DNA of 64,000 bases from an uncultured Alphaproteobacteria bacterium (GCA_902464275.1 CABQIK010000002.1:14-64013), one strand, 5' to 3'; numbered from the stretch's first letter, positions 9,809 to 62,383 are shown. Numbers and translations are program-made. Notes: generated from the sequence alone by a model not told the origin.

Positions 9809-9942
9809 CTGTTTCTCCCTTAAAAACGCTTTAATGTAACATTTTTGTTTTGCTCTGACAAGCGCTTAATTCAGATATTGCAATACCGCGGGTTTTATGT
9901 TATGATAATAACAGTTGATGCAAAGTACCAAACGAGATTGCC

Positions 9943-11367: not shown

Positions 11368-11660
11368 ATTTTTCTTCAAACACTTGTTACCATGCAGCCA
11401 TGGAGTGAACACATAGGTTCATGGTATGTAATGCGGACGGGTGATGGTATGCAGGATAATTACGTCGGCTATCCTAAAAAACTAAACACCGTAAGCATAA
11501 ATGACTTTCAGTATGTATGTTCAAAGTCATGCAATGCGGATTATGACTATTGCACCATAAATTTCTGGTTTTATTTTAATAAAATTGATTAGATTAAAAA
11601 AGAAAAAAGAGGAGTTCTTTTATGAAACATCCTCTTTTTACTTTGCATCAAGCCGCCGGT

Positions 11661-20648: not shown

Positions 20649-20686
20649 AAAATGGTGTTTGTTTTACATTGCATCGTATATTTATA

Positions 20687-20779
20687 CAACTTATACACAG
20701 CACGGACTCGTAAATATTGCAAAAAAAAAACGCGAGCTAAAATCTTCTTAAATTTAACAATTTGAGGAGATTTTAGCTC
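20687..20779 (+). promoter_or_regulatory. conserved pilin-family upstream element (TTGCAA 20717-22, A10 20721-30, TAAAAT 20738-43, GAGGAG 20764-69)
   Basis: Same element as at the other paralogs. Confidence 0.6.
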
Positions 20780-21400
20780 ATGAATACACAATCTGGACGT
20801 TCTATGGTGGAAATGCTTGGCGTTCTTGCCATTATCGGGGTTTTGTCTGTCGGGGCGATTGCCGGTTATTCTAAAGCCATGTTCAAGTACAAACTAAATC
20901 AGCACGCAGAGGCGGTTAATATGCTGATTAACAACGCTTTGCAAATTAAAGACAAATTGGCATACGAAGCAAACACACTCACGGCATACGGTGATATTTT
21001 CAAAAAATTAAACTTACTTCCCGACGGCATAGAATACATTTCCAATGATTATTTACAAGATAAATGGTTTAAAGATAATATTTATATATATCATCACAAC
21101 TCAAACCAAAACAACCATGGAGCTATACGCTTCGGTTTTCTGCCAACATCGCAAGGCGCGGAAATTTGCCGCAATATTATAATCGCGGCTAAAGAAAATG
21201 CAGCCAACTTATGGCGAACCGTAACTTATATAAATACTGATGACGGCAGTATGAACAATTCTCCGCAAGGAGATTTGTATGGCGACGCTTACTGTACAAA
21301 CGGCGTAAATTGTTTGCGAGATTTAAACTTAAACAAAATCAGCCATTTGTGCAATACCTGCAATGGAACTAACTGTATGTTATTTATAACTTATAAATAA
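20780..21400 (+). CDS. type IV pilin-like protein, paralog 3
   Basis: MNTQSG|RSMVEMLGVLAIIGVL... Subfamily B: NMLINNAL..LLPDGIEYIS..IYHH..SQGAEICRNI.IAAKENAANLW..LYGD.YC....NCLRDLNLNKI..LCN.CN. Confidence 0.8.
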   Translation: MNTQSGRSMVEMLGVLAIIGVLSVGAIAGYSKAMFKYKLNQHAEAVNMLINNALQIKDKLAYEANTLTAYGDIFKKLNLLPDGIEYISNDYLQDKWFKDNIYIYHHNSNQNNHGAIRFGFLPTSQGAEICRNIIIAAKENAANLWRTVTYINTDDGSMNNSPQGDLYGDAYCTNGVNCLRDLNLNKISHLCNTCNGTNCMLFITYK

Positions 21401-28428: not shown

Positions 28429-29319
28429 ATGTTTTGCAAACCTGAAGTTTGTATTCTTCCAGTTGCAGGTTTATCAACCCGCAACCTTCCCGCAACCAAA
28501 GTTTTACACAAAGGTTTTTTAACCTTAAATAACCTGCCGATTATTCAATACGCGGTTGAATGTTGTCGTGAAATCGGCGTTAAAGAGATTATTTTTATTT
28601 ACAGTGACCAATCTTGCAAATATCTGTTTGAAAAATATTTTGCCCCCTACCCCTGGCTTGAAGAGCATTTGGCTAAAAAGGGCAAAACGGATTTACTTAA
28701 AGCCATGCAAGACATTATTCCGGAAGGAATGAAGTTTTCATTTGCCGAGCAAAAAGAACCTTTAGGCAACGGACACGCTATTTTAATGGCCAAAGAGTTA
28801 GTCGGCAAACGCGACTTTATTGTTATGTGGCCTGATGATATTTACATCAACTTCCACGGTGAAGGAATTTTAAAACAACTCTGCGACATTTATGAAAAAA
28901 CCGGCGGCGTGGTTGAAAACATTATGGAATTTCCGCGTGAAGAAATGACCAGATACGGCGCTTTGGTCGGCGCGGTGCGCGAAGGCAGAACCGTTCATGC
29001 CCGCGGCTTGGTTGAAAAACCGAAACTTGAAGAAGTTCCGTCTAACTATGCCAGCATGGGGCCATACATTTTGCCGAATGTGGTAATGGATATTTTACCG
29101 GAAGTTAAAAACGGCTCCAACGGCGAAATTAATTTGACCGATGCCATTAATTTGGCGGTTGAACGCGGCGAACCGCTGACCGGCGTTTTGTGCAGCGGCT
29201 TGCGTTTTGACTGCGGCACCAATGACGAGTTGGCAAAATCTAACTTAAAACTTTCATTGATGTGCAACCCCAAATTGCGCGCTTACGCCAAAGAGCTGCT
29301 TGATACTATTTTGGTTTAA
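28429..29319 (+). CDS. galU: UTP--glucose-1-phosphate uridylyltransferase
   Basis: LPVAGLSTRNLPATKVLHKGFL..PIIQYAVEC... matches the GalU N-terminal nucleotide-binding region. Confidence 0.75.
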   Translation: MFCKPEVCILPVAGLSTRNLPATKVLHKGFLTLNNLPIIQYAVECCREIGVKEIIFIYSDQSCKYLFEKYFAPYPWLEEHLAKKGKTDLLKAMQDIIPEGMKFSFAEQKEPLGNGHAILMAKELVGKRDFIVMWPDDIYINFHGEGILKQLCDIYEKTGGVVENIMEFPREEMTRYGALVGAVREGRTVHARGLVEKPKLEEVPSNYASMGPYILPNVVMDILPEVKNGSNGEINLTDAINLAVERGEPLTGVLCSGLRFDCGTNDELAKSNLKLSLMCNPKLRAYAKELLDTILV

Positions 29320-29376: not shown

Positions 29377-29379
29377 GCG

Positions 29380-29470
29380 CAACTTATGCACAGCGCGGAC
29401 TCGTAAATATTGCAAAAAAAAAACGCGAGCTAAAATCTTCTCAAAATTAACTTTTGAGGAGATTTTAGCT
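29380..29470 (+). promoter_or_regulatory. conserved pilin-family upstream element
   Basis: caacttatgcacagcgcggactcgtaaatattgcaAAAAAAAAAAcgcgagctaaaatcttc...gaggag. Confidence 0.6.
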
Positions 29471-30112
29471 ATGAAATCAGAAAATGGTCGTTCTATGGTG
29501 GAAATGCTCGGCGTATTAGCAATTATCGGCGTTCTGTCCGTTGGGGCGATTGCCGGTTATTCTAAAGCCATGTTCAAGTACAAGCTTAACAAACATGCGG
29601 AACAGATGAATACGCTGATTAATGCCGTGGCGCGCAATGTGCACAACTTTAATAATATCGGCGGTAGCACAACCATAGTGCCGTATCTTGTCAAAATGGG
29701 TGAAATTCCGACTGAAATGGTAAAAACAAACGTCAATAATTTTGTATATGATATTTTCGGGCAAGCTTGGCTGATTTTCATCGCCAGTGATGCTCAAAAC
29801 ATTTTGCTTTCATCATATTCAACTAAAGGCGCATCATCACTTACCGCCAAATCAGCCGACAATTTGGAAATTTGCAAAAACATATTGCTCGCCGCCAAAG
29901 AAAATCATGACAGTATTGTAAGAGTTTATTCAGTCAGCAACCATAATACCAGTGATGAAAAACAAAAAACACTATACGGTGATACTCTTTGTAATACAGA
30001 TCGCACTTGCTTAAAAGATGTGAGTTTAAATGACATTTATGATTTTTGCACTAAACATTACGGCATAAACTCCGCATCAGGCACAGAACTTGCCATAACT
30101 TGGCAACGGTAA
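29471..30112 (+). CDS. type IV pilin-like protein, paralog 4
   Basis: MKSENG|RSMVEM...; subfamily A (QMNTLINAVARNVH..KMGEIPTEMVKTNVNNFVYDIFGQ..). The track N-terminal extension is rejected. Confidence 0.8.
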   Translation: MKSENGRSMVEMLGVLAIIGVLSVGAIAGYSKAMFKYKLNKHAEQMNTLINAVARNVHNFNNIGGSTTIVPYLVKMGEIPTEMVKTNVNNFVYDIFGQAWLIFIASDAQNILLSSYSTKGASSLTAKSADNLEICKNILLAAKENHDSIVRVYSVSNHNTSDEKQKTLYGDTLCNTDRTCLKDVSLNDIYDFCTKHYGINSASGTELAITWQR

Positions 30113-30121
30113 TTAACCGGA

Positions 30122-30415
30122 TTATAATTTAACTAAATCAGGCTTTATACGTTCATAAAAACTCGGCTCTGTTTGGTGATAATCGGTAAAATTAACAATA
30201 TACGGCAAACGGCTTTCATCAAACTTATATTTAAGTTCTTGCAGTTGTTCAGGTTTAACGGCGTGATTCCCCTTAATTAAAATATCTAAATCTGAAACCG
30301 CGCTATAATTGCCTTTAACACGCGAGCCGTAAGCAAAAAAATTATATTCCGGTTTATAGGCGCTTAAAATATCTGCAATAATTTTTGCTTCTGCCGGTAA
30401 AACTCCCGCTATCAT
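30122..30415 (-). CDS. minimal nucleotidyltransferase (MNT / HI0073-like) antitoxin
   Basis: YGSRVKGNYSAVSDLDILI is the GS...DxD pol-beta NTase motif; 97 aa. Confidence 0.7.
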   Translation of the reverse strand: MIAGVLPAEAKIIADILSAYKPEYNFFAYGSRVKGNYSAVSDLDILIKGNHAVKPEQLQELKYKFDESRLPYIVNFTDYHQTEPSFYERIKPDLVKL

Positions 30416-30831
30416 TACACTAAAACCTTATCAAACGAGTTTATTAAAAAATTAACATCAGCAATGAATGCCGGCAAAACAGGCAATAAATCGCGCGCCT
30501 TTTCAATGTTGTATTCATGCGAGGTATTATTGCGTTGAGCATAGTAATTTTTCCAGTTTTCCCAATCAGGAATCATGGCATAGCCCTGCATAAGCCGGAA
30601 AATATTATTAACGGTTAATTCTTTATCTTCTTTGGCATACTCAAGTTTTAAATAACGCCGCATAAGCTTTAATGACGTTTCAAGCGTATACTCAAAGCGT
30701 TTTACACACGAATCGGCAACAATACCGGCCATTAAAGCATCAGACTGTTCGCGAGTGTATACCTGCCAACTTTCTTGCAATGTGGCTATGGCATTTCGTA
30801 AAATATTAATATCAAATTCGGACTTATTCAT
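30415..30831 (-). CDS. HEPN-domain protein (HI0074-like NTase substrate-binding; HepT-like toxin)
   Basis: RNNTSHEY is an R-x4-H-x-Y HEPN motif. 138 aa, overlaps the MNT gene by 1 nt. Confidence 0.7.
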   Translation of the reverse strand: MNKSEFDINILRNAIATLQESWQVYTREQSDALMAGIVADSCVKRFEYTLETSLKLMRRYLKLEYAKEDKELTVNNIFRLMQGYAMIPDWENWKNYYAQRNNTSHEYNIEKARDLLPVLPAFIADVNFLINSFDKVLV

Positions 30832-30897
30832 TAAACACCTCTGTTAAATCAGAGTTTACAAAATATATTTTACAGTTGCAAGCAAAAATCCCGAATA

Positions 30898-30989
30898 CAA
30901 CTTATGCACAGCGAAGACTCGTAAATATTGCAAAAAAAAAACGGGAGATAATATTATTTTAAAAGTAACATTTTGAGGAGATTTTTATC
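30898..30989 (+). promoter_or_regulatory. conserved pilin-family upstream element (variant with cgggagataatatt after the A10 tract)
   Basis: caacttatgcacagcgaagactcgtaaatattgcaAAAAAAAAAAcgggag...gaggag. Confidence 0.55.
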
Positions 30990-31649
30990 ATGAAATCAGA
31001 AAATGGCAGAAGTATGGTGGAAATGCTTGGCGTTCTTGCTATCATCGGGGTGCTGAGCGTTGGGGCGATTGCCGGTTACAGCAAAGCCATGTTCAAATAC
31101 AAACTTAACAAACACGCTGAGCAAATGAACACGCTGATTAATGCGGTTGCGCGCAACGTGCATAGCTTTGATAATCTGCACAGTAACGGCTCGCCAAACG
31201 TTCTAACCCCTATTTTTATAAAAATGGGTGAAATTCCAACTGAAATGGTGAAAACAAATGTCAATAATTTTGTGTATGACATTTTCGGACAGCAATGGCA
31301 GATATTTATATCTTCAACCGATACAACCATGTTTTTAACCTCGTGGCTTGAAAACGGTTCGTCATTTTTATCTTCGTCTTCACCTGACGGCTTAGCAATC
31401 TGCCAGAATATTTTGATTGCCGCTAAAGAAAATTCAGATAGCATAAATAGAATCGCGGCAACTTCAGCTAACTCAGATTCCGATATTCAAAACGATGATG
31501 CAACCTCTCATTATTTATACGGAGATAACTATTGTTCTGCTAATAGAAGATGCCTTAAAAACTTAACATTAGATGATATTTACACAACTTGTTCAGATCA
31601 TGTAAAAGGCGGTAAAGCGGCGTTTCAACTTATGTGGAGACGCAATTAA
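30990..31649 (+). CDS. type IV pilin-like protein, paralog 5
   Basis: MKSENG|RSMVEM...; subfamily A. The first 90 aa are nearly identical to paralog 4, then diverge. Confidence 0.8.
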   Translation: MKSENGRSMVEMLGVLAIIGVLSVGAIAGYSKAMFKYKLNKHAEQMNTLINAVARNVHSFDNLHSNGSPNVLTPIFIKMGEIPTEMVKTNVNNFVYDIFGQQWQIFISSTDTTMFLTSWLENGSSFLSSSSPDGLAICQNILIAAKENSDSINRIAATSANSDSDIQNDDATSHYLYGDNYCSANRRCLKNLTLDDIYTTCSDHVKGGKAAFQLMWRRN

Positions 31650-38126: not shown

Positions 38127-38203
38127 GGGTGTGTAGCTCAGGTGGTTAGAGCGTTACGTTGACATCGTAGAGGTCGCAGGTTCGAGTCCTGCCACTCCCA
38201 CCA
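38127..38203 (+). tRNA. tRNA-Val (anticodon GAC)
   Basis: Cloverleaf folded by hand: acceptor GGGTGTG/CACTCCC, D-arm GCTC-AGGTGGTTA-GAGC, anticodon arm TTACG-TTGACAT-CGTAG, T-arm GCAGG-TTCGAGT-CCTGC, then A-CCA. Confidence 0.9.
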
Positions 38204-38550
38204 ATAAATAAGTCCCCTTCACGGGGATTTTTTATTGGTGAAAACAGAAAGAACCTGCGACCTCGTTAGAGGCTTGAGGATAAAAACAGCCGAAGTAACG
38301 GCTGTTTTTACCGCAAAAGGCGTAGTTTTGTTTGCGAGCCAGGAAAGCGGCAGCGACCGCAGCGAGCCAACAAAACAAGTGACCGACGCGCAGTTAGTGA
38401 AAGCTTTTACAAAAATAAGCTTGCGGAGAATGCGGCTAATGTGCAGCAAGTTTTTTTCTGCGGTATACTAAACCGCTACATAAAGAAAAAACTTGCTAGC
38501 AGGAGCCCATTATACGCAGGCGTAAAAGCTTGAACTTACTAAGCTAGACA
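38204..38550. mobile_element. small non-coding tRNA-associated element bounded by 81/82-nt direct repeats (38178-38258 and 38551-38632) that comprise the tRNA-Val 3' end plus its downstream hairpin
   Basis: The second copy of aggttcgagtcctgccactcccaccaataaataagtcccct(t)tacggggatttttt(t)attggtgaaaacagaaagaacctgc is read directly. The internal segment gaggataaaaa-hairpin-ttttt...gaccgcagcgag... is ~70% similar to the tRNA-Thr-linked 275-bp unit. Confidence 0.55.
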
Positions 38551-38652
38551 AGGTTCGAGTCCTGCCACTCCCACCAATAAATAAGTCCCCTTTACGGGGA
38601 TTTTTTTATTGGTGAAAACAGAAAGAACCTGCAATACCGTGGCTTTTGTAAA

Positions 38653-39690
38653 CTAAGGCTGTAAAACCTCCCAATAGCCGCCTTTGTCCGGACCTATGCG
38701 GCGAATTTTTTCTTCTTTTTTCAATTTTTCTAAATTCCATTTAACACCGTCAGGCGTAAGTCCGACAAGATTGGCTAGCTCTTTGCGGGTAGCTTTAGGA
38801 TTATTTGCCAGTATTTGTAAAATTTTCTGGGTAGTTCCAATAATGTTTTTCTGGGTAGTTTTCTGGGGAGTACCATCTGTTATCTGCATTGTTCGGTTAT
38901 CAAGCCGTGTATTTTCACCCAACAACAAATTTCCAAAAAAATTATTTAAGTATTCAAAGGTATAAAAAATATCTTTATTTAAATTTTGATAGTTAGCACG
39001 CACAAGAGCATTGCGGAAATATTTGGCATGAGCTTCAAACATATCATTATTGGTTGCAAAACCCAGTGTATATAAATATTTTATAATAAATACTGCCGTG
39101 GTACGGGTGTTACCTTCGCCAAACGGATGAATTTGCCATATCCCGGAAGTAAATTTTGCAAGGTGCTCCACTTTTTCACGCTTTGACAATCCTTTATAAT
39201 TAAACTTTTTTTCTTGTGCAAAATCATAATCAAGAGTTTCCATAATACTGTCAGCGCGGCCGTAAATAACGGTATCGCCATTTAATATCGGTTCTTTTTT
39301 GGTAATGTCGTATGTTCTGATTTTGCCGGCAATTTCTTTAGCAAAAATGCCTGTAAACAGCACTTTGTGAATAGATATTAATTCAGCCGGACTAAATGAA
39401 AAAGTATGCGTGCTTAAAAGTTTGGCAATACGCGCCGAAACCTCATCAGCCTCTTTTTCATTATGTTCTTGTACTGTTTTTGCCGGATTTTCTTGATAAT
39501 ATCTGCTGACTTGTTTTCCGGCTTCATCAATAGAAATTTTTCCCTCAATATTATCTTTGGCAATTTTTATCAGATATTGAGAAGGTATCAAATTGTCAAC
39601 CTGTTGCAAACCGATTGCAATACTCCAATTTTCGGCTTTTTTATATTTTTCCGGCTCGCCTTGTTTTTTGTATTCTTCAAAATGTTCCAT
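38653..39690 (-). CDS. fic: Fic/DOC family protein with a C-terminal winged HTH
   Basis: HPFGEGNTRTTAVFI matches the Fic core HPFx(D/E)GNGR motif. C-terminal ...TRKELANLVGLTPDGVKWNLEKLKKEEKIRR. Confidence 0.8.
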   Translation of the reverse strand: MEHFEEYKKQGEPEKYKKAENWSIAIGLQQVDNLIPSQYLIKIAKDNIEGKISIDEAGKQVSRYYQENPAKTVQEHNEKEADEVSARIAKLLSTHTFSFSPAELISIHKVLFTGIFAKEIAGKIRTYDITKKEPILNGDTVIYGRADSIMETLDYDFAQEKKFNYKGLSKREKVEHLAKFTSGIWQIHPFGEGNTRTTAVFIIKYLYTLGFATNNDMFEAHAKYFRNALVRANYQNLNKDIFYTFEYLNNFFGNLLLGENTRLDNRTMQITDGTPQKTTQKNIIGTTQKILQILANNPKATRKELANLVGLTPDGVKWNLEKLKKEEKIRRIGPDKGGYWEVLQP

Positions 39691-39787
39691 AATGCCTCCG
39701 ACAAAGATGTATAAAGTATAGCAAATATATGATAAAAATCAAGCGACAAACGATGCGGGCAGTTGTTAAATAATTTCAGACCAAATA

Positions 39788-39880
39788 CAACTTATGCACA
39801 GTGCAGACTCGTAAATATTGCAAAAAAAAAACGCGAGCTAAAATCTTCTCAAAACTAACAATTTGAGGAGATTTTTTATT
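39788..39880 (+). promoter_or_regulatory. conserved pilin-family upstream element
   Basis: caacttatgcacagtgcagactcgtaaatattgcaAAAAAAAAAAcgcgagctaaaatcttc...gaggag. Confidence 0.6.
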
Positions 39881-40507
39881 ATGAAATCAGAAAATGGTCG
39901 GTCTATGGTGGAAATGCTCGGAGTTCTGGCTATTATCGGGGTGTTGTCGGTCGGCGCTATTGCCGGTTACTCCAAGGCAATGTTTAAGTATAAATTAAAT
40001 AAGCAAGCGGAAGGGTTTAACCTGCTGTTAAATAACGCTTTGCAACTTGAAGGAAGCTTGAATTTTACCCCCGATGCCGTAACTTATTACGGTGATTTAT
40101 TTAAAAAGCTTAACCTGATACCGGACGGTTTTAAGTATGAATCAAATTTTAGATTAAAAGACATGTTCAATAATGATATTTGGATTTATCATCATGACAA
40201 TTTAAATGGTAACGATTTACATTTCAGCGCTATCGGATATAAATTTCAACCCTCCTCGCAAGGCGCCGAGCTCTGCCGCAACATTGTGATAACCGCTAAA
40301 GAAAACGCAGCCGATTTATACGCGCTGACCACCACAAAATATAATAATGACGGAAGCTATAATCCGTCACAGGGAACTTTATACGGCGATAAGTTTTGCG
40401 ATGCCTCCGACAAACCCTGCATGCGCAATTTGACTTTAGATAAAATAGCCGGACTTTGCCATATATGTAACGAACAAACTTGCGACTTATATATAGAATG
40501 GCAATAA
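39881..40507 (+). CDS. type IV pilin-like protein, paralog 6
   Basis: MKSENG|RSMVEM...; subfamily B (..LIPDGFKY..IYHH..SSQGAELCRNIVITAKENAADLY..LYGDKFC....PCMRNLTLDKI..LCHICN). Confidence 0.8.
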   Translation: MKSENGRSMVEMLGVLAIIGVLSVGAIAGYSKAMFKYKLNKQAEGFNLLLNNALQLEGSLNFTPDAVTYYGDLFKKLNLIPDGFKYESNFRLKDMFNNDIWIYHHDNLNGNDLHFSAIGYKFQPSSQGAELCRNIVITAKENAADLYALTTTKYNNDGSYNPSQGTLYGDKFCDASDKPCMRNLTLDKIAGLCHICNEQTCDLYIEWQ

Positions 40508-40542: not shown

Positions 40543-41484
40543 ATGAAAAGTGAAATTATATATAATACCGACTCCGAACTGCACACCACCATTGTAAATT
40601 GGCTTTTGTGGCTTAAAAACGAGCGCCGCTATTCTGAGCATACCATAGACGCTTATGCCCGCGATATGGCGTGTTTTGTTAATTTTTTTGCAAGCGAAAA
40701 TGCGGTAAATATTGACTTTTTGCGCAATATGCAGGTGCATGACTTCAGGCGCTTTATCGGCTTCAGAGCCACTCATTACATTGAAAAATCATCACAATCA
40801 CGCGAGCTTTCCGCGGTTAAAAACTTTTTTAAGTGGCTGGATAAAAACCATATCTTGAAAAATTCCGCCATCAGCGTAATCAGCAATCCGCGTCTGCCAA
40901 AGGTTTTACCCAAAGCGCTTGATGTTACTGACGCGCAAGACTTGCTACAACAGGTAAAATCTTTTGCCAAAGACGATTGGCAAGGTTTGCGCGACCAAGC
41001 CATTTTGATTTTGCTATACGGCTGCGGATTGCGTATTTCAGAGGCGTTATCCTTAAACGTTGGCGACATAAACGCCAACAGTGAATTTTTGCGCATAAAA
41101 GGAAAAGGCAACAAAGAAAGACTTGTTCCTTTGTTGCCCATAATCACTGAAGCCGTAAACGCCTATACCACTGCCGCGCCATATAATTTTAAGCACGGCG
41201 AGGCTTTGTTTGTCGGCGCTCGCGGTGAACGTTTAAGTCCGCGGATTATTCAACGACAGTTGCAAAAGATTCGGGCGTATATGGGCCTTCCTGATACTGT
41301 GACGCCCCATGCTCTGCGACATTCTTATGCAACTCATTTATTAGCTGAGGGAACCGACCTGCGCTCCATTCAGGAGTTATTGGGTCATGCGTCCCTAACC
41401 ACAACCCAACGCTATACCGATGTTCAGACCGAAACCTTAAAACGTGAATACGATAAGGCGTATAGTCCTGAAACAGATAAATAA
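40543..41484 (+). CDS. tyrosine site-specific recombinase (XerC/XerD family)
   Basis: C-terminal catalytic region HALRHSYATHLLAEGTDLRSIQELLGHASLTTTQRYTDV with the R..HxxR..Y pattern. Confidence 0.8.
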   Translation: MKSEIIYNTDSELHTTIVNWLLWLKNERRYSEHTIDAYARDMACFVNFFASENAVNIDFLRNMQVHDFRRFIGFRATHYIEKSSQSRELSAVKNFFKWLDKNHILKNSAISVISNPRLPKVLPKALDVTDAQDLLQQVKSFAKDDWQGLRDQAILILLYGCGLRISEALSLNVGDINANSEFLRIKGKGNKERLVPLLPIITEAVNAYTTAAPYNFKHGEALFVGARGERLSPRIIQRQLQKIRAYMGLPDTVTPHALRHSYATHLLAEGTDLRSIQELLGHASLTTTQRYTDVQTETLKREYDKAYSPETDK

Positions 41485-44759: not shown

Positions 44760-45821
44760 ATGGAAAAACCGATTCTTGCCGCCATTTTGTCGGTCAGCGG
44801 CACCAAATTAACCGATGATGAAAAGTTTTTGCTTGAAAAAGCAAACCCGCTCGGGGTGTCATTGTTCGGGCGCAACATTGCAAGCAAAGAGCAACTTATA
44901 AGCCTTAATAACGAAATTAAATCAGTTATCGGGCGCGGCGATGCGCTGATTGCGCTTGATGAAGAAGGCGGCCGGGTTAACCGCTTAAAATCTTTGGGGT
45001 ATGATTACGCATGGGCTAAAAGTTTGGGCGATTCCGGCTCAGAGCAAATTGCCAAATTGCACTGCAAAATTATTGCTGAAGATATGCTTATGCTCGGCGC
45101 TAACTTAAACTTTGCGCCGGTGTTAGATGTGGAGTATGAGCAGACAACCATTGCCCTTAAAGGACGCTGTTTAAGCTCTGACGAGCACAAGGTGGCCAAA
45201 CTGGGGCGGGTTATGTGGCAAACTTATGCCGAATCGGGAGTTTGTCCTTGTCTGAAACATCTTCCGGGGCACGGACGCGCCGCCAACGACCCGCATTTGC
45301 AACTGCCGGCCATCACCTGCTCTTTGACTGAAATGGAAAAAGATTTTTATCCGTTTATTAAAAATAATGACTGCCCGATGGCTATGACGGCGCATATTTT
45401 GGTAACCGAATTTGATGAGCGCGCTCCGATAACTTTTTCAAAGCGCGGAATTAATGAAATTATACGCTCGCGAATCGGATTTAACGGATTTTTACTTTCA
45501 GACGCACTTGAAATGAAGGCGCTTAAAGGTAATATTACAGAACGCGCCGTTAGCGCGTGGAATGCCGGTTGCGATGCTGTATGCTATTGTAACGGCGATA
45601 TTAATTCTTTGCAAGAAATATGCCAAAACGGCCGATTTTTAAGCGACATTGCGCTTGAGAGGTTTAATAATGTAAAAAATGTTTTGCAAAAAGCAAAAAA
45701 ATCAATACAATTAACTCAAGAGCGTGAAAGTTACGGTGAGTTTTTGCGCTTGCACAACGCTGAAGAAATTAATTATGATGCAACCGAAATACTGCATCAG
45801 ATGCAACAAGGAGAAAAATAA
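44760..45821 (+). CDS. nagZ: beta-N-acetylhexosaminidase (GH3)
   Basis: KHLPGHGRA catalytic region; ~350 aa; follows the SPOR gene as in many alphaproteobacteria. Confidence 0.8.
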   Translation: MEKPILAAILSVSGTKLTDDEKFLLEKANPLGVSLFGRNIASKEQLISLNNEIKSVIGRGDALIALDEEGGRVNRLKSLGYDYAWAKSLGDSGSEQIAKLHCKIIAEDMLMLGANLNFAPVLDVEYEQTTIALKGRCLSSDEHKVAKLGRVMWQTYAESGVCPCLKHLPGHGRAANDPHLQLPAITCSLTEMEKDFYPFIKNNDCPMAMTAHILVTEFDERAPITFSKRGINEIIRSRIGFNGFLLSDALEMKALKGNITERAVSAWNAGCDAVCYCNGDINSLQEICQNGRFLSDIALERFNNVKNVLQKAKKSIQLTQERESYGEFLRLHNAEEINYDATEILHQMQQGEK

Positions 45822-46012
45822 TGTTTTTTGGTTTTTGGAGTTGGGTTTTGGTGTTTATTGCAGTGGCTGCAATTTTTTCAGCTGACAGACTGCCTGAATT
45901 AAAAGAGTTTTTTAAAGAATTTACCGAGACCGTTAAAACCGGCACTAAAAACGGTGTGCAAAAGGTTAAAGAAAAAGCCGAAAAGGCTAAAAAGAACAAA
46001 GAAAATAAATAA
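45821..46012 (+). CDS. tatA: TatA/E-like small membrane protein (Sec-independent translocase subunit), tentative
   Basis: 63 aa: N-terminal TM helix, then an amphipathic lysine-rich tail (..IFSADRLPELKEFFKEF..). Position after nagZ fits the conserved nagZ-(scpAB)-tatA neighbourhood. Confidence 0.4.
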   Translation: MFFGFWSWVLVFIAVAAIFSADRLPELKEFFKEFTETVKTGTKNGVQKVKEKAEKAKKNKENK

Positions 46013-46035
46013 TTTGTTTGTTTTATAAAAATTTG

Positions 46036-46070
46036 CCCCGCATGGTATTATTCACGCGGGGTTTTATTTT
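46036..46070 (+). terminator. rho-independent terminator
   Basis: ccccgcatggtattattcacgcgggg followed by TTTTATTTT. Confidence 0.55.
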
Positions 46071-46094
46071 ACACAATTTATGTACATCTGTAAA

Positions 46095-46285
46095 AATTCC
46101 ACTCCTGAGGAGGGGGGCGGCGCTAGCCGACGGGGTGGTGAAAATATAAGGTTAAAAATTATACTTAATTTACGGTTTTTTGTAATATAAAACAAATATT
46201 TAATACGCTGTTAAACAGTGCAATAACCACCCCGCCTTCGGCACCCCTCCATAGAGGGGAATTTTTTATAGTGCCAATTTACATA
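46095..46285. mobile_element. second copy of the MITE-like element (aattccactcctgaggagg ... ccatagaggggaattttttatagtgccaatttacat) immediately upstream of the paralog 7 promoter
   Basis: ~75-80% identical to 751-1005. Flanked by a degenerate acaatttatgtaca (46069-46083) and an exact acaacttatacaca (46286-). Confidence 0.5.
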
Positions 46286-46378
46286 CAACTTATACACACC
46301 CCAGACTCGTAAATATTGCAAAAAAAAAACGCGAGCTAAAATCTTCTTAAATTTAACTTTTTGAGGAGATTTCAGCTC
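46286..46378 (+). promoter_or_regulatory. conserved pilin-family upstream element
   Basis: caacttatacacaccccagactcgtaaatattgcaAAAAAAAAAAcgcgagctaaaatcttc...gaggag. Confidence 0.6.
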
Positions 46379-46990
46379 ATGTATACACAATCTGGACGGT
46401 CTATGGTGGAGATGATCGGCGTTTTAGCTATTATCGGGGTGCTGTCGGTCGGGGCTATCAGCGGATATAGCAAAGCCATGATGAAGTATAAAATGAATCA
46501 AGCCGTTGACGGATATAACCATTTAATCGCCACGGTTATTGAAAAAATAGCGCAGGATAACAGCACGTTTGAAGCAGATTCAAATAACACCCTTTGGTAT
46601 ACGTCCATTTTTGCCAAAGCCGGTTGGCTGCCGGATTATTTTAAACCACTAAACGATACTCCTCAATATGCGCTTGATAAATCCCGCAATCTGGTCTGGA
46701 TTTTTAAAAATAAAAAGAAAGAACTAGGAATCGGAGTTGAAATCAGCCACCAAAAAGAACTCTGCACAACTTTATTTAACTTAGCCAAAGAATGGAAAGG
46801 CGACTTAGCCCGCTGCGGGAGTGAAAACAACAACGGCAGCGTTATATATGGGCAATTTTTTGGTGATAAAAACTGCACTGATGAGGTTAAATGTTTGGCA
46901 AACATTACCGTTAATGATATTAACACCGCTTGCTCGCCATGTGAAACGCAAGATTGCCGATTTTACTTTATTACCAACGCCATGCAATAA
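46379..46990 (+). CDS. type IV pilin-like protein, paralog 7 (divergent, 7 Cys)
   Basis: MYTQSG|RSMVEMIGVLAIIGVLSVGAISGYSKAMMKYKMNQ. The C-terminal C..C..C scaffold is retained. Confidence 0.75.
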   Translation: MYTQSGRSMVEMIGVLAIIGVLSVGAISGYSKAMMKYKMNQAVDGYNHLIATVIEKIAQDNSTFEADSNNTLWYTSIFAKAGWLPDYFKPLNDTPQYALDKSRNLVWIFKNKKKELGIGVEISHQKELCTTLFNLAKEWKGDLARCGSENNNGSVIYGQFFGDKNCTDEVKCLANITVNDINTACSPCETQDCRFYFITNAMQ

Positions 46991-46994
46991 ATTA

Positions 46995-47030
46995 AAAGCG
47001 GAGAATTTGCTCTCCGCTTTTGTTTTTATT
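46995..47030. terminator. bidirectional terminator hairpin (aaagcggagaatttgctctccgcttt + TGTTTTTATT) overlapping the rsfS stop
   Basis: 10-bp stem, 6-nt loop and a T-run. Confidence 0.6.
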
Positions 47031-47367
47031 TGCGCTTGTTAGCGGCTGACTGCCACATTTTTTCAAGACTGTAAAAATCGCGCACTTCCGGCTTAAAGAT
47101 ATGCACAATCACGTCAAAGGCATCAATCAAAACCCAATCGGCTTTGTCCTCACCTTCCATTGAAGAGGTAAAACCGGCTTTCTTTAAGTTTTCATGCACT
47201 TTTTCAGCCAATGAGGCAACATGGCGCTGCGAGGTGCCGCTTGCTATTACCATGTATTCGGCGATTGAGGTTTTGCCTTTTAAATCAAGCACTACCACAT
47301 CTTCAGCCTTATTGTCATATAAGGTTGTTTTAACAATTTCTAAAATTTTATCTTCTTGTTTTTCCAC
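47026..47367 (-). CDS. rsfS: ribosomal silencing factor RsfS (Iojap)
   Basis: DVVVLDLKGKTSIAEYMVIASGTSQRHV. Confidence 0.85.
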   Translation of the reverse strand: MEKQEDKILEIVKTTLYDNKAEDVVVLDLKGKTSIAEYMVIASGTSQRHVASLAEKVHENLKKAGFTSSMEGEDKADWVLIDAFDVIVHIFKPEVRDFYSLEKMWQSAANKRK

Positions 47368-51156: not shown

Positions 51157-51402
51157 TACTTATATTAAAAATGAGAAATTCATATCTCAAAAACAGCTTA
51201 TTTTTCTATTTTTGAGAAACGCATATCTCAAAAATGGTTGACTTTTGTAAAATGAGCATGTGCTTTAGAGCCAAATACTGTTTATGTTTCGGTTCCTGCA
51301 AATAAAAACAAACTATTAATGTGTTGCAAAACAGTGCAATAACCACCCCGCCTTCAGCACCCCTCCTCGGGATGGGAATTTTTTATAGTGCCAATTTACA
51401 TA

Positions 51403-51493
51403 CAACTTATACACACCCCGGACTCGTAAATATTGCAAAAAAAAAACGCGAGCTAAAATCTTCTTAAAAGTAACTTTTGAGGAGATTTTAGCT
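51403..51493 (+). promoter_or_regulatory. conserved pilin-family upstream element, preceded at 51305-51402 by the right half of the MITE-like element
   Basis: ...accaccccgccttcagcacccctcctcgggatgggaattttttatagtgccaatttacat | acaacttatacacaccccggactcgtaaatattgcaA10... Confidence 0.6.
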
Positions 51494-52147
51494 ATGAAAT
51501 CAGAAAATGGTCGTTCTATGGTGGAAATGCTCGGGGTATTGGCGATAATCGGAGTGCTGAGTGTCGGGGCGATTAGCGGATATAGCAAAGCCATGTTTAA
51601 GTACAAACTCAATAAACATACGGAACAAATGAACACAGTGATAAACGCAGTTGCCCGCCATGCGCACAGCTTTGATAATATCCAACACAGAGATTCTTTA
51701 ATTCCATATTTTATTAAAATGGGCGAAATTCCAACTGAAATGGTGAGCACAAACGATGGTTACTACATCTTTGACGTTTTCAGACAGGCATGGTATATAC
51801 GTATTGAAGGCGGCGCTATAGTTTTAGCCTCAATGTATGATGTCGGTTCATCATTTTTATCCTCATTTTTATCCTCAAACTCTCCTGAAAATCTGGCAAT
51901 ATGTCAAAATACGTTAAACATCGCCAAAGAAAACGCGGATAACATAGATACTATTGTGATATACACGGCTAACTCCGGTTCCGCTAATAATAAATTTGAG
52001 TATATATTGGGTGATAAACTTTGTACCGCTGAATATATGCAATACGACAAATGTTTGAAAAACTTAACCTTAAATGATGTTCATACTCTCTGCACCGAAC
52101 AGTTAAAAAACGGCTATGGGTTATTCCAGTTATCATGGGAACAATAG
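51494..52147 (+). CDS. type IV pilin-like protein, paralog 8
   Basis: MKSENG|RSMVEM...AISGY; subfamily A. Confidence 0.8.
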   Translation: MKSENGRSMVEMLGVLAIIGVLSVGAISGYSKAMFKYKLNKHTEQMNTVINAVARHAHSFDNIQHRDSLIPYFIKMGEIPTEMVSTNDGYYIFDVFRQAWYIRIEGGAIVLASMYDVGSSFLSSFLSSNSPENLAICQNTLNIAKENADNIDTIVIYTANSGSANNKFEYILGDKLCTAEYMQYDKCLKNLTLNDVHTLCTEQLKNGYGLFQLSWEQ

Positions 52148-52277
52148 TAATAACATTTGAGCGCTATTATTTTTCAACAAAAACAAACAATTAATGCGCT
52201 GATAGATAGTAATGAGACCACCCCGCCTTCGGCACCCCTCCTCGGGATGGGAATTTTTTATAGTGCCAATTTACATA

Positions 52278-52368
52278 CAACTTATACACACCCCAGACTC
52301 GTAAATATTGCAAAAAAAAACGCGAGCTAAAATCTTCTTAAATTAACAATTTTAGGAGATTTTTTATT
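52278..52368 (+). promoter_or_regulatory. conserved pilin-family upstream element, the only copy with an A9 instead of an A10 tract (52312-52320). Preceded at 52181-52277 by the right half of the MITE-like element
   Basis: The A-run was counted directly in all 11 copies: ten are A10, this one is A9. Confidence 0.6.
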
Positions 52369-53019
52369 ATGAAATCAGAAAATGGACGTTCAATGGTAGA
52401 AATGCTTGGCGTGCTCGCGATAATCGGCGTTCTGTCGGTCGGGGCGATTGCGGGGTACAGCAAGGCGATGTTCAAATATAAACTCAACAAACAAGCAGAA
52501 AGTTTCAATATGCTATTGAACACTGCCATACAAATACAACCTGATTTAGACCGCACGCATAATACCGGAGCACTTGGCGGCAACCGTTTGCTTTATCAAG
52601 CAGGGCTTATCCCTGACGGCATGAGTTATAAAAATGGTATAATTTATGATATATTTAATCACGAAATTATCAGTAATTATGTAACCAGCATGGTGCCTGG
52701 TGAAAATCATTATACCGAATATAAATTAATATATGACATTGGATACGGCTCTGAACAAAGCATAGAAATCTGCCGCAATATGCTTAATGTTGCTAAAGAA
52801 AATGCCGCTGATTTACCGTTCATAAAATTACGTTACGCCAAAACTTCCACGGACTCTGACGTTAGTGAAAACCGCATTTACGGTGATAAAGGGTGCACAG
52901 GCGACAATATTTGTTTGCGCAATATGGGAGTAAAACAAGCTGACGACTTTTGTTCCCCTTGCACTTCTGAAAATTACTGCGCTATTCTGTTTTCTATATA
53001 CTTTAAGGACTTGCTTTAA
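52369..53019 (+). CDS. type IV pilin-like protein, paralog 9
   Basis: MKSENG|RSMVEM.... Its variable region starts AESFNMLLN like paralog 1, then diverges. 6 Cys. Confidence 0.8.
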   Translation: MKSENGRSMVEMLGVLAIIGVLSVGAIAGYSKAMFKYKLNKQAESFNMLLNTAIQIQPDLDRTHNTGALGGNRLLYQAGLIPDGMSYKNGIIYDIFNHEIISNYVTSMVPGENHYTEYKLIYDIGYGSEQSIEICRNMLNVAKENAADLPFIKLRYAKTSTDSDVSENRIYGDKGCTGDNICLRNMGVKQADDFCSPCTSENYCAILFSIYFKDLL

Positions 53020-60032: not shown

Positions 60033-60038
60033 TCAATA

Positions 60039-60130
60039 CAACTTATGCACAGCACGGACTCGTAAATATTGCAAAAAAAAAACGCGGAGTAAAATCTTCT
60101 TAAATTAACTGTTTTGAGGAGATTTTTAAT
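60039..60130 (+). promoter_or_regulatory. conserved pilin-family upstream element (variant: cgcggagtaaaatc)
   Basis: caacttatgcacagcacggactcgtaaatattgcaA10cgcggagtaaaatcttc...gaggag. Confidence 0.55.
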
Positions 60131-60886
60131 ATGAAATCACATTTTAGCCGCTTTTTACACATCACATCGTCATATTCGGGCTTGACCCGAATATCCAGGT
60201 GGAAAAAATTTGCTACTTGGTTTGACCTGGACACTCCGGTCAAGCCCGATAATGACAGCTTGTGTGCTGGTCGGTCTATGGTGGAAATGCTTGGCGTTCT
60301 GGCAATTATCGGAGTCTTATCCGTCGGGGCGATTGCCGGATACAGTAAAGCGATGTTTAAGTACAAATTAAATCAGCATGCACAAGCGGTTAATATGTTG
60401 ATAAATAATGCGCTTTCAATTAAAGATCAATTACAACATAAACTTAACGCGACCACATATTACGGAACCCTGTTGCACAAAATGAATCTGTTACCCGACG
60501 GTATAGAATATATTTCTGATACCACATTAAAAGAAAAGTATTTCAATAGCAATATTATGGTTTATTATATGCATAAGGAAGGTTTTGAAGACTTTGGCGG
60601 AATAGAGTTTAGCTTCAATCCCACAGCACAAGGTGCGGAAGTTTGCCGCAACATTGCATTTGCCGCCAAAGAAAATGCCGCTAATTTATGGGAGCTTGAA
60701 ACATATAAATATTTTAATGACACAACTTCAGGTGACGGTAAATTCATCGGGCATATATACGGTGATTCCTATTGTACAGAAGAAAAAAGCTGCCTGCGTG
60801 ATTTGGACTTAAACAAAATAGAAAAATTGTGCAACGATTGCAATGAAAAACGTTGCATGTTGTATGTTTTGTGGGAAAACCGCTAA
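60131..60886 (+). CDS. type IV pilin-like protein, paralog 10, with a ~123-bp in-frame palindromic insertion in the leader (leader 47 aa instead of 6)
   Basis: MKS[HFSRFLHITSSYSGLTRISRWKKFATWFDLDTPVKPDNDSLCA]G|RSMVEM.... Insertion bounded by the 11-bp IR cgggcttgacc (60177-87) / ggtcaagcccg (60238-48), with an inner IR tccaggt / acctgga. The mature part is subfamily B. Confidence 0.65.
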   Translation: MKSHFSRFLHITSSYSGLTRISRWKKFATWFDLDTPVKPDNDSLCAGRSMVEMLGVLAIIGVLSVGAIAGYSKAMFKYKLNQHAQAVNMLINNALSIKDQLQHKLNATTYYGTLLHKMNLLPDGIEYISDTTLKEKYFNSNIMVYYMHKEGFEDFGGIEFSFNPTAQGAEVCRNIAFAAKENAANLWELETYKYFNDTTSGDGKFIGHIYGDSYCTEEKSCLRDLDLNKIEKLCNDCNEKRCMLYVLWENR

Positions 60887-60889
60887 ATA

Positions 60890-60979
60890 CAACTTATGCA
60901 CAGCACGGACTCGTAAATATTGCAAAAAAAAAACGCGGAGTAAAATCTTCTCAAAACTAACTTTTTGAGGAGATTTTTT
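60890..60979 (+). promoter_or_regulatory. conserved pilin-family upstream element, starting 3 nt after the stop of paralog 10
   Basis: caacttatgcacagcacggactcgtaaatattgcaA10cgcggagtaaaatcttc...gaggag. Confidence 0.55.
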
Positions 60980-61687
60980 ATGTTTATTCTAAAAAATAAT
61001 CCAAGCCTGCGGAGAATGAGTCAGATGCGACGGAATTTTGGAGCGACTTGTACACAAAAAGGTACACGAGCGAGAAAATCCCTAGTAGATGACCATTATA
61101 CGCAGGCCCTAGGGCGGTCTATGGTGGAAATGCTGGGAGTTCTTGCCATTATCGGGGTACTGTCGGTTGGGGCGATTGCCGGATATAGTAAGGCGATGAT
61201 GAAGTATAAATTAAATAAGCAATCAGAGCAATTAACTCAAATTCTGTTTTCATTAGAACATTACCGCGAAATGCTTGGCCGCGACCGCAACAATATTGCA
61301 ACAAACACTTCTATAATCACTTTGCTCACCAAACTGAACGCCATTCCGCTTGAAATGATTAGACCGAATGATAATTTACAAATTTACGATGTTTTTGGTA
61401 ATCGTGTCAGTATTAGCTATTACGGAAACGGTTATTCTTATAACCTTGCGGTTTATTATCAACCCGACCAATATGATGTTTGCAATAATGTGTTTGAGCT
61501 GATTAAAGCCAATAGCGAAAAACTTTACTCTGTGGGTGTTAAACTAGATCAAACCGGTGATTTTGCTTCTCCGGCGTTATATGGAAAAACTATAAACAAT
61601 ATCAACAAAAGCGATATTTATGATTACTGCGCTTTATGCAAAAGCGGTCCTCGCTGCCGTGTTTCCGCCAATTTCAAATTTGAGTAA
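60980..61687 (+). CDS. type IV pilin-like protein, paralog 11 (divergent), with a ~117-bp in-frame palindromic insertion in the leader
   Basis: M[FILKNNPSLRRMSQMRRNFGATCTQKGTRARKSLVDDHYTQAL]G|RSMVEMLGVLAIIGVL...AGYSKAMMKYKLNK. Insertion has terminal IR gcctgcg (61004-10) / cgcaggc (61101-07). The track N-terminal extension is rejected. Confidence 0.6.
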   Translation: MFILKNNPSLRRMSQMRRNFGATCTQKGTRARKSLVDDHYTQALGRSMVEMLGVLAIIGVLSVGAIAGYSKAMMKYKLNKQSEQLTQILFSLEHYREMLGRDRNNIATNTSIITLLTKLNAIPLEMIRPNDNLQIYDVFGNRVSISYYGNGYSYNLAVYYQPDQYDVCNNVFELIKANSEKLYSVGVKLDQTGDFASPALYGKTINNINKSDIYDYCALCKSGPRCRVSANFKFE

Positions 61688-61757: not shown

Positions 61758-62307
61758 TGGTGCCGGTTATGTGACTTGAACACACGACCCACGCTATTTA
61801 GAATGCGGCGAGGATAAAAATTGCTCCGGTGGAGCAATTTTTGACGCAGCGGGATAGTTTGTCGCCAAGGCGGCAAGCGACAGCGCAGGAGCCGCGGCGT
61901 TACAAACAGACTGACCGCAGCGAGTTAGCGATTGACCGCAGGGCAGAGCTTACGAGCCAGAGCTAGCAACGCAAAAATCCCCGTTGCTTTAGCGGCGGGG
62001 ATTTTTACTTAAAAGGTATCTCTTAAAAAAACTGGTGCCGGTTATGTGACTTGAACACACGACCCACGCCATTTAGAATGCGGCGAGGATAAAAATTGCT
62101 CCGGTGGAGCAATTTTTGACGCAGCGGGATAGTTTGTCGCCAAGGCGGCAAGCGACAGCGCAGGAGCCGCGGCGTTACAAACAGACTGACCGCAGCGAGT
62201 TAGCGATTGACCGCAGGGCAGAGCTTACGAGCCAGAGCTAGCAACGCAAAAATCCCCGTTGCTTTAGCGGCGGGGATTTTTACTTAAAAGGTATCTCTTA
62301 AAAAAAC
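61758..62307. repeat. tandem direct repeat, 275-bp unit x2 (61758-62032, 62033-62307). Each unit begins with a 38-nt exact copy, plus ~15 nt degenerate, of the 3' half of the adjacent tRNA-Thr
   Basis: Period measured from tggtgccgg at 61758, 62033 and 62308. Units differ by only a few substitutions. The non-coding body carries two hairpin+T-run structures (ttgctccggtggagcaa+ttttt; aaaatccccg...cggggatttt). Confidence 0.85.

Positions 62308-62383
<76 letters not shown>

Follow-up and report, generated by a model that had tools for sequence, protein, structure and literature searches.

An old family of putative pilin-like genes holds a uniform, apparently head-on orientation to replication in uncultured gut Alphaproteobacteria

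Why should all members of a dispersed gene family point the same way along a chromosome? The question is raised by a 64,000-nucleotide (nt) stretch of DNA from an uncultured alphaproteobacterium (GCA_902464275.1 CABQIK010000002.1:14-64013), here referred to as the window, to which all coordinates without a locus label refer. The original prediction described 11 paralogous genes in this stretch, one of them in the flagged region 45821-47367, that are all on the plus strand and are wedged between unrelated housekeeping genes; they were read as a promoter-plus-gene module that had been repeatedly inserted or duplicated in a fixed orientation, possibly that of replication. A six-frame motif scan for the near-invariant N-terminus GRSMVEMLGVLAIIGVLSVGAIAGYSKAM(F/M)KYKLN identified 11 family genes, 11/11 on the plus strand, and a hidden Markov model (HMM) of the family run against the six frames of the whole window recovered the same 11 and no minus-strand member at an E value of ≤1, which confirms the uniform orientation. 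The odds first quoted, roughly 1 in 1,000 under random orientation, agree with a two-sided probability of 2 x 0.5^11, or ~1e-3. As the plus strand has just 17 of the window's 54 remaining genes, chance is nearer 0.31^11, or ~3e-6.

A database search returned 5,426 homologs, and DNA with at least 111 family copies was retrieved for analysis. As the loci from the GTDB were retrieved by a search of both strands, the strand of the copies was ascertained without bias. Most contigs with two or more copies are uniform in family orientation (19/22, one spanning >100 kb). When 724 kb of contigs from at least five species were oriented by their family strand, the octamer GGGNAGGG occurred 0 times on that strand and 25 times on the opposite one. 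In most Proteobacteria, this FtsK-orienting octamer (KOPS), which marks leading strands, behaves as an architecture-imparting sequence (PMC3384302). The contigs agree throughout (19/19), with 40 copies opposite to KOPS and 1 in the same direction; the octamer bias corresponds to a z value of ~5, and the maximum among the 14,471 octamer families with a nonzero family-strand count was 6.9. The two KOPS-type octamers of the window, GGGCAGGG at 19231 to 19238 and GGGTAGGG at 28645 to 28652, both read on the minus strand even though each is within a gene of the plus strand; they do not, therefore, merely follow gene orientation. With the family units masked, the most strand-skewed oligomers were G/T rich and on the strand opposite the family. 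Splitting the third-codon skew into coding-strand and replication-strand components gave, for the family strand of the window, r_GC = -0.05 and r_AT = +0.05 (C rich and A rich); in four genomes, r_GC on the family strand was -0.07 to -0.20 and negative in 31 of 34 loci, and the GC3 component was negative in four of five further lineages. Between 60 and 69% of the other genes are on the strand opposite the family, and rplU, rpmA, rpmG, grpE, and obgE, as well as the genes for IF2 (infB), SecA, RecA, and Lon, are found there.

Across at least five species, ~97% of the copies are thus placed opposite to KOPS and to the G/T excess, the exceptions being one member of a pair in locus L081 (78-884), one of a pair in L065, and the copy at L003 4989-5774. 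Because the family strand opposes KOPS, the G/T excess, the majority of genes, and the ribosomal protein genes, we take it to be the lagging strand, on which the family would be transcribed head-on to the replication fork. The fixed orientation is far from chance, and the suspected link to replication holds; its direction, however, is the reverse of the co-orientation first proposed. Two candidate landmarks were set aside: L081, with divergent genes and a local skew minimum, was not established as an origin, and CAAFZY003, considered as an origin or terminus contig, has a skew without a flip, its minus-strand copy being an exception that is co-oriented with suf/sucC.

The family genes are monocistronic and autonomous, each being served by a promoter of its own; the discrete promoter-plus-gene module described at the outset is real. 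The conserved block starts abruptly at ATACAACTTAT in the window copies, and in a profile of 94 copies from five genomes the information content steps from ~0 to near maximal at (A)TACAACTTAT, in keeping with the sharp 5' boundary noticed in the window. The consensus reads ATACAAC-TTAT(G/A)CACA-GCACG-GACTC-GTAAATA-TTGC-A(9-12)-CGCGAGC-TAAAAT, with a -10-like GCTAAAAT after the A-tract, and is followed by a 5' untranslated region (UTR) of ~45 nt with GAGGAG. In the copy of the flagged region (unit 7, 46283-46990, plus strand, with the gene at 46379-46990 between a 63-amino-acid [aa] open reading frame [ORF] and rsfS), these elements are a DnaA box at 46290-46298, GACTC at 46304-46308, TTGC at 46316-46319, A10 at 46320-46329, a putative -10 TAAAAT at 46337-46342, and a Shine-Dalgarno sequence GAGGAG at ~46365. 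A hairpin at 46993 to 47022 that resembles a bidirectional intrinsic terminator separates unit 7 from the convergent rsfS.

The DnaA-box consensus TTATNCACA is matched perfectly, and the sole variable base (G/A) falls at its N position. Shuffled sequence gives 2.5 perfect boxes, and the window has 11, all on the plus strand, 10 of which are in family promoters; the promoter of the eleventh family gene is off the left edge. The one box outside the family (20480-20488, plus strand) is at the 3' end of a Glyco_transf_5 gene, 211 bp upstream of the box of unit 3. More widely, 112 of 124 promoters have a perfect box, and these account for 74% of all perfect boxes in 620 kb. GACTC, a CcrM-type GANTC site, is invariant, 5 nt after the DnaA box and 7 nt upstream of TTGC. 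Its antisense strand reads CGAGTCT, a perfect YGAKTCK, in five of the ten window promoters and CGAGTCC in the other five. YGAKTCK is the element preferred by GcrA (PMC4647560). At hemimethylated sites GcrA binds strand specifically, and sister-specific regulation has been proposed (PMC3667746). DnaA is a transcription factor in Alphaproteobacteria (PMC6393856). A GcrA protein (PF07750, 136 bits) is encoded in a related metagenome-assembled genome (MAG). In three more divergent lineages, (A/T)TATCCACA, GACTC, the 7-nt gap, TTGC, and the A-tract are retained while other positions vary, and the distance from TTGC to the -10-like element is a constant 17 nt. The putative -35 and -10 elements are TTGCAA and TAAAAT with 15 nt between them; this arrangement also fits the Caulobacter pattern TTGACGS-N10-14-GCTANAWC. 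Inspection of the consensus spoke against sigma54 (wrong GG/GC spacing), sigma28 (wrong spacing), and CtrA-type promoters (no TTAA-N7-TTAA). In a divergent lineage (L103 ~9700-9900), tandem hairpin repeats of the form GACTCCGG...CCGGAGTGACAGTTAGGAGG, which resemble repetitive extragenic palindromes and each contain GANTC sites, precede the family promoter.

The start of the A-tract is within TTGC(AA) or directly behind it, and 7 nt separate the end of the tract from TAAAAT. The tract length among 110 copies was A10 in 89, A9 in 15, A11 in 5, and A12 in 1, and it differed between near-identical strains or orthologs in five comparisons. For instance, window copy 52369 has A9 and its counterpart in L097 has A10, with proteins that are 100% identical and DNA that is ~99% identical over a 20.6-kb aligned region; both copies differ between L107 and L108 (A11/A12 and A9/A11; ~98.8% DNA identity in the main aligned block), and orthologs with A9 and A11 were also found. 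Most comparisons gave A10 on both sides.

What do these genes encode? The proteins have a class III-type prepilin signal, with (S/N)G before and RSMVEMLGVLAIIGVLSVGAIAG after the cleavage point, that is invariant in 11/11 window copies and 116/120 homologs; it has G at -1, E at +5, and then a hydrophobic helix of ~20 residues. A conserved N-terminus is followed by a variable, Cys-rich globular domain in which four cysteines, C129, C166, C172, and C185, are invariant in a 46-sequence alignment. An AlphaFold2 model (pLDDT 83) has an N-terminal helix of residues 7 to 57 and then a confidently predicted alpha/beta domain with beta strands and three further helices. No Pfam domain was found among the family homologs, and the N_methyl profile (PF07963) scored 12.6 to 16.7 bits, under its gathering cutoff of 21.2, with one copy unmatched, and the sole NCBIfam match was PRK10506 at 16.6 bits. 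Profile comparison with PDB sequences yielded weak N-terminal matches only, the best being TcpA (E = 0.07). In a related MAG, a cluster resembling those for type IVb pili adjoins a family copy (L090 137-7073); it encodes, in order, a 522-aa Pro/coiled-coil protein, a T2SSE ATPase, a T2SSF platform protein, a bundlin/PilS-like protein, and the family copy with its own promoter. After this copy, on the opposite strand, follows a second, shorter T2SSE-family ATPase, which we read as PilT-like and which has a homolog in L080. A motif scan of the sampled DNA found no prepilin peptidase.

From the motif and this context, the proteins appear to be pilin-like substrates of a type IVb-like system, with formal membership incomplete. 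They share with type IVb pilins and minor pilins (TcpA, bundlin, and the R64 PilS/PilV shufflon) the G at -1, the E at +5, the long hydrophobic helix, the conserved C-terminal cysteines, and the combination of a conserved N-terminus with a variable C-terminus, to which the weak TcpA match and the adjoining bundlin/PilS-like machinery can be added. They differ in residue +1, which is Arg in essentially all members instead of Phe, Met, Leu, or another hydrophobic residue and is thus unusual for the N-methylated position of a pilin; in a globular domain without a fold match; in being encoded by >100 dispersed, separately promoted genes and not by one locus or shufflon; and in leaders that range from 5 to ~130 residues across the family. 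Part of this range was seen in the window. Units 10 and 11 have in-frame insertions of ~40 residues (60140-60268 and 60983-61111) that separate the start codon from the prepilin cleavage site, that of unit 10 being a palindromic repeat with arms at 60169-60200 and 60225-60256. Leaders of 20 to 130 residues made from the same translated modules (FSRFLHHT, GLTRISRWNKFA, and LDxRVKPDxD) are found in ~60% of the top 120 homologs, with examples within P0004-P0070, and one homolog cluster at ≥90% identity has lengths of 233 to 276 aa. Rickettsia palindromic elements likewise insert in frame; here, the insertions are inside a cleaved-off peptide.

The named homolog sources are MAGs of uncultured "Alphaproteobacteria bacterium," and many contigs with family genes or rsfS relatives originate from human-gut or other gut metagenomes. 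The family is very large and confined to uncultured gut Alphaproteobacteria.

How old, then, are the units? The C-terminal variable domains of the paralogs are 22 to 54% identical, and at fourfold-degenerate third positions within the invariant N-terminal 36 codons 54% of sites differ between paralogs, compared with 8% in the 62-nt promoter; a 25-mer of the promoter recurs without a mismatch in four GTDB species representatives, in at least 96 stretches. Near-saturated synonymous sites beside a conserved promoter point to selection on the promoter and not to recent copying. Recent copy-and-paste would yield similar genes, which were not seen, and concerted evolution, which would homogenize the adjacent coding DNA, is likewise unsupported. 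Housekeeping proteins of four related species are 81 to 100% identical to those of the window, family orthologs are 72 to 89% identical, and most copies with sampled flanks occupy the same slots, as the synteny comparison with relatives suggested at the outset has now revealed. Orthologs are ~82% identical and adjacent housekeeping proteins ~91%. The sequence comparisons thus establish units that are old, with purifying selection keeping the promoter constant while the genes diverge, and do not support repeated insertion as a recent event. The head-to-tail tandems 51494/52369 and 60131/60980 are present, as is a third pair, 46/1099; the tandem neighbors belong to different subfamilies, are 23 to 28% identical, and are not each other's closest relatives. 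We noticed that one of the GTDB representatives, CAVBCV01 (L019, L032, and L039), is labeled "Lachnospiraceae bacterium H07603-L1_cleanbin_000017" and has 81 to 100% aa identity and synteny with the window; its taxonomic label looks wrong.

The explanation that we favor, and hold to be probable, is an old head-on pilin-like family with a promoter gated by replication and the cell cycle, the orientation of which is kept by selection. DnaA would act as an activator at the family promoters, the methylation state of GANTC would be read by GcrA/sigma70 after fork passage, and A-tract slippage in the promoter spacer would tune individual copies, so that expression of the family would be gated by both the cell cycle and replication. 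Read-out of such a promoter may depend on which strand stays parental, and hence methylated, behind the fork; with strand-specific GcrA and a DnaA box in the promoter, orientation relative to the fork would become a functional parameter. The repeat unit itself provides a second possible constraint. With ~45 nt of identical promoter core and a highly similar N-terminal coding stretch, >100 dispersed repeats may be tolerable only if they are co-oriented on each replichore, because recombination between replichores would then give tolerated inversions symmetric about origin and terminus, and those within a replichore would be avoided. Regulation and recombination safety may both apply, and in either case we infer that the uniform orientation stems from selection and not from insertion chemistry.

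Several observations weigh against this explanation. The polarity call was made from KOPS, skew, and gene bias, and the sampled contigs contain no origin or terminus. All 13 transfer RNA (tRNA) genes of the GTDB loci share the strand of the family, as does one of the two in the window (14/15 overall; tRNA-Val at 38127-38203 is on the plus, or family, strand and tRNA-Thr at 62308-62383 on the minus, or KOPS, strand); because tRNA genes usually occupy the leading strand, they contradict the lagging-strand call as a proxy of polarity. In L052, the atpAD operon is likewise co-oriented with the family. That the tRNA genes of this lineage really are on the lagging strand is more likely than an inverted polarity, and we have no explanation for it. 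The parts played by DnaA and by GcrA/CcrM are suggested by motifs; the sampled DNA, ~7 to 10% of each genome, yielded no CcrM-like DPPY methyltransferase, and the GANTC depletion of 0.48, considered as evidence for CcrM, was dropped, as it is not specific to CcrM and is no stronger than that of other palindromes. A 15-nt spacer is atypical, and for this reason a standard sigma70 scan does not call the promoter. The dominance of A10 indicates stabilizing selection more than free phase variation, and the homopolymer length differences could be assembly errors. A Foldseek search of the PDB with the globular domain returned nothing at E ≤0.001, the top matches being unrelated proteins and no pilin. 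The evidence fits selection on orientation and an oriented insertion process alike. The main uncertainties are a polarity inferred from proxies, a promoter function read from motifs, and the unexplained strand of the tRNA genes.

An oriented insertion process would have spread the promoter and gene as a mobile cassette, with site-specific insertion, or insertion into single-stranded DNA at the fork, fixing the strand. The sharp boundary at ATACAACTTAT is what such a cassette would leave, and one slot has different occupants in different species. Copy 46379 has its closest relative in another species in a different context, after glmM (P0016, L105 10001-10792, 75% identical), and the glmM slot of the JAJWCP genome (L096 ~500-1340) holds a paralog that is only 36% identical to P0016. 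A solitary promoter 5' half with the DnaA box, GACTC, TTGC, and A10, cut exactly after A10, adjoins rlmH in the CAAFZY genome (L075 4062-4110), and a possible 3' relic of a twelfth copy, with weak similarity to family C-termini (E ~0.4), is at 11390-11592 on the plus strand of the window, in a slot that holds an intact copy in CAAFZY (L075 6243-7016). A strain of the same species (L098, 94 to 97% identical over the flanks) lacks window positions 38205-40087, which comprise a Fic/helix-turn-helix gene, a family promoter, and the 5' half of copy 39881; this indel begins exactly at the 3' end of tRNA-Val. At 76 rsfS loci from relatives with RsfS identities of ≤80%, rplU-rpmA-obgE-rsfS is kept in most loci that are long enough, no family gene or promoter is found within 4 kb, and tatA/nagZ is not adjacent. 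Since both the copy and tatA/nagZ are missing beside rsfS in these distant relatives and other slots change as well, the units mark junctions of synteny breaks at depth. In addition, 7 of the 13 tRNA genes (loci L002-L095) have a family promoter in the same orientation 200 to 1,100 bp downstream.

A further element bears on the cassette. At 46095-46263, directly upstream of unit 7, is a strandless element of ~170 bp that resembles a miniature inverted-repeat transposable element (MITE), with imperfect terminal inverted repeats of ~40 bp and a right arm ending in a terminator-like hairpin (46244-46259, CCCCTC-CATA-GAGGGG) and a T run. Related copies are at ~745-1000, with right halves at ~51300-51390 and ~52190-52270, and 13 of the 22 right arms in the 724 kb point the same way as a family promoter that lies 51 to 118 nt downstream. 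On the far side of the element is a degenerate ACAACTTAT..CA motif (729-740 and 46070-46088); the element repeatedly abuts the 5' motif and has a degenerate copy of it at its other end. The statement that the flanking DNA is unrelated does not always hold, as four copies have this common element directly upstream.

Against the cassette, only the 5' boundary is conserved, the 3' ends of the units being gene-specific terminators, and neither a second-end recombination site nor a dedicated recombinase tied to the copies was found. The sole recombinase of the window is XerC (TIGR02224, 317 bits), which adjoins one copy and has the same place in relatives; an association with dif/Xer sites was rejected, since the sole dif-like match is ACAACTTATGCAC of the promoter itself, read in reverse complement, and this XerC is the ordinary housekeeping enzyme. 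Target-site duplications had been suggested as a test at empty sites; a search through 80 rsfS loci gave no clean empty site, and no target-site duplication was found. Fork-coupled single-stranded DNA transposons of the IS200/IS605 type have their sense strand on the leading strand, a polarity opposite to that of the family, and the deep divergence of the paralogs, their near-saturated synonymous sites, and the stability of the slots across four species also argue against spread by insertion. We regard the cassette as unlikely. Two places beside tRNA genes look like small integrated elements or remnants: a unit of ~350 bp after tRNA-Val (38204-38630) and two tandem units of ~275 bp beside tRNA-Thr (61758-62307), with the 3' half of the tRNA duplicated in each case.

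No more probable than the cassette is a frozen accident, in which a founder on the lagging strand was duplicated locally and carried along by strand-preserving inversions symmetric about origin and terminus, with orientation never being selected. The three tandem pairs of the window and the many pairs ~0.8 to 1.2 kb apart in relatives would fit local duplication, bacterial genes rarely switch replication strand, and recombination between copies on opposite replichores would keep orientation automatically. However, the tandem neighbors are members of different subfamilies with 23 to 28% identity, and for the family to reach >100 separate housekeeping contexts, many translocations would have been required, each carrying a flip probability of 50%, and yet ~97% of the copies agree; the tRNA genes on the same strand hint at a wider rule.

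A third possibility, which we consider improbable, is that head-on placement was selected for evolvability, with replication-transcription conflicts raising indel and mutation rates and so speeding both A-tract switching and diversification of the variable domains. It would draw on the head-on placement itself, the hypervariable C-terminal domains, the lower identity of orthologs than of their housekeeping neighbors, and the A-tract differences between strains that are ~99% identical in their aligned region; head-on mutagenesis at promoters has been reported. Surface proteins, however, evolve fast on either strand, the tract is A10 in 89/110 copies, second-order selection for mutability is contested, and conservation of the DnaA box and GANTC is left unexplained.

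More speculative again, and to be given little credence, is the idea that the family forms a chromosome-wide, fork-oriented epigenetic array that provides complementary surface repertoires to sibling cells and a replication-counted DnaA sink. Each promoter would pair a DnaA box with a GANTC site read strand specifically by GcrA, and at a head-on copy the sister duplex made by leading-strand synthesis would always retain the methylated sense strand. Until remethylation by CcrM, each daughter would then have the repertoire of one replichore in a permissive hemimethylated state and that of the other in a nonpermissive one, so that two siblings would deterministically show complementary repertoires; copies would fire in the order of their distance from the origin, and >100 consensus DnaA boxes would serve as the sink. 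Least probable of all is a reversed polarity, with the family and the tRNA genes on the leading strand of a lineage with atypical skew and KOPS-like bias, for while the tRNA genes, atpAD, and the usually very high expression of major pilins would fit it, it would need, all together, a leading strand rich in C and A, just 31 to 40% of genes on that strand, lagging-strand genes for ribosomal proteins, infB, secA, recA, and lon, and GGGNAGGG pointing away from the terminus (PMC3384302).

Returning to the head-on family with a gated promoter, its components have parallels in known systems. Homopolymer-tract promoters, such as those with poly(A) in Mycoplasma hyorhinis vlp, poly(C) in Bordetella fim, and of Neisseria porA and opc, likewise serve surface proteins, in multigene families with near-identical 5' regions, have the homopolymer between -35-like and -10-like elements, and differ by single nucleotides between close strains. 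In the family described here, tract lengths are narrow (A10 in ~80%), the copies are chromosome wide, a DnaA box and GANTC are added, and switching is putative. As in Caulobacter ctrA P1, GANTC is just upstream of the -35 element, and the YGAKTCK match on the antisense strand and a GcrA protein in a relative are further likenesses to the DnaA- and CcrM/GcrA-controlled promoters of ctrA, mipZ, and ftsZ; here, by contrast, one design known from sequence is repeated >100 times in one orientation to the fork, with the site at about -42/-44 from a predicted start. Head-on gene sets of Bacillus and pathogens also form an accessory, surface-exposed, fast-evolving class on the lagging strand, but those are statistical trends over heterogeneous genes, whereas here a single family is ~97% head-on, with tRNA genes on the same strand. 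Pilin-like expansions in Planctomycetota/Lentisphaerota (DUF1559) and Elusimicrobiota likewise combine a prepilin-type N-terminus with divergent C-termini in sets of tens to hundreds of paralogs, from which the present family differs in matching no Pfam domain; we know of no report that those families have a promoter in common, a DnaA box, or a rule of replication strand. Finally, the DnaA-titrating clusters datA of Escherichia coli and DBCs of Bacillus subtilis likewise place many consensus boxes outside oriC, while the family boxes are single, one per promoter, every ~5 to 6 kb, in one orientation, and not clustered.

Within the window, Pfam supports most of the housekeeping neighborhoods first named, the exception being the tatA call: the 63-aa ORF so named has no Pfam match at E ≤1e-5. 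Unit 7 follows nagZ (Glyco_hydro_3) and this ORF and precedes RsfS-Obg-L27-L21. All of the remaining units are on the plus strand as well. Unit 1 (1-711, gene 46-711) has its promoter cut by the window edge, with the -10 region and 5' UTR remaining, and is followed by unit 2 (1003-1734, promoter 1003-1062, gene 1099-1734), with the DnaA box at 1010-1018, GACTC at 1024, and A10 at 1040-1049. Unit 3 (20684-21400, promoter 20684-20743, gene 20780-21400) is between Glyco_transf_5 and deoA, in a neighborhood of GrpE/Glyco_transf_5 on one side and PYNP-PNP-cytidine deaminase on the other. Unit 4 (29377-30112, gene 29471-30112), whose promoter (29377-29436) starts GCGCAACTTAT, comes after a GalU-like NTP_transferase gene, and unit 5 (30895-31649, promoter 30895-30954, gene 30990-31649) after a gene pair that had been called a toxin-antitoxin (TA) pair. 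The pair is present (30122-30831); by Pfam, it is a nucleotidyltransferase, NTP_transf_2, with its substrate-binding partner NTase_sub_bind, and thus TA-like, and the same layout of a pair sandwiched by two copies is found in CAAFZY (L010 248-954). Unit 6 (39785-40507, promoter 39785-39844, gene 39881-40507) is followed by the housekeeping xerC (40543-41484). Units 8 (51400-52147, promoter 51400-51459, gene 51494-52147) and 9 (52275-53019, gene 52369-53019) form a tandem, the promoter of unit 9 (52275-52333) having A9 and not A10. Unit 10 (60036-60886, promoter 60036-60095, gene 60131-60886), with ~41 extra in-frame leader residues, and unit 11 (60887-61687, promoter 60887-60946, gene 60980-61687), with an in-frame leader insertion of a second type, form another. 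Two family copies follow an IMS/UmuC-like gene and a 165-aa ORF. No second paralogous family was found among the unannotated plus-strand ORFs of the window, and an Rfam scan of the whole window returned two tRNAs and nothing else.

Large pilin-like expansions, homopolymer-tract promoters, and promoters controlled by DnaA, GcrA, and CcrM are already known, and our literature search found nothing relevant on this family or on head-on gene families. To our knowledge, what is new is the combination of these features in one repeated unit and its near-absolute head-on placement across species. If true, this would be the cleanest known natural case of replication direction constraining a nonessential gene class, with >100 members, ~97% of them head-on, and it bears on the dispute over whether cells exploit a head-on orientation, for regulation or for evolvability, or merely tolerate it. 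Should closed genomes bear it out, the placement of tRNA genes on the family strand would itself be a surprise. The shared promoter would tie the expression of surface proteins to the replication initiator and to cell cycle methylation. Common uncultured Alphaproteobacteria of the human gut devote several percent of their coding capacity to this uncharacterized pilin-like surface system.

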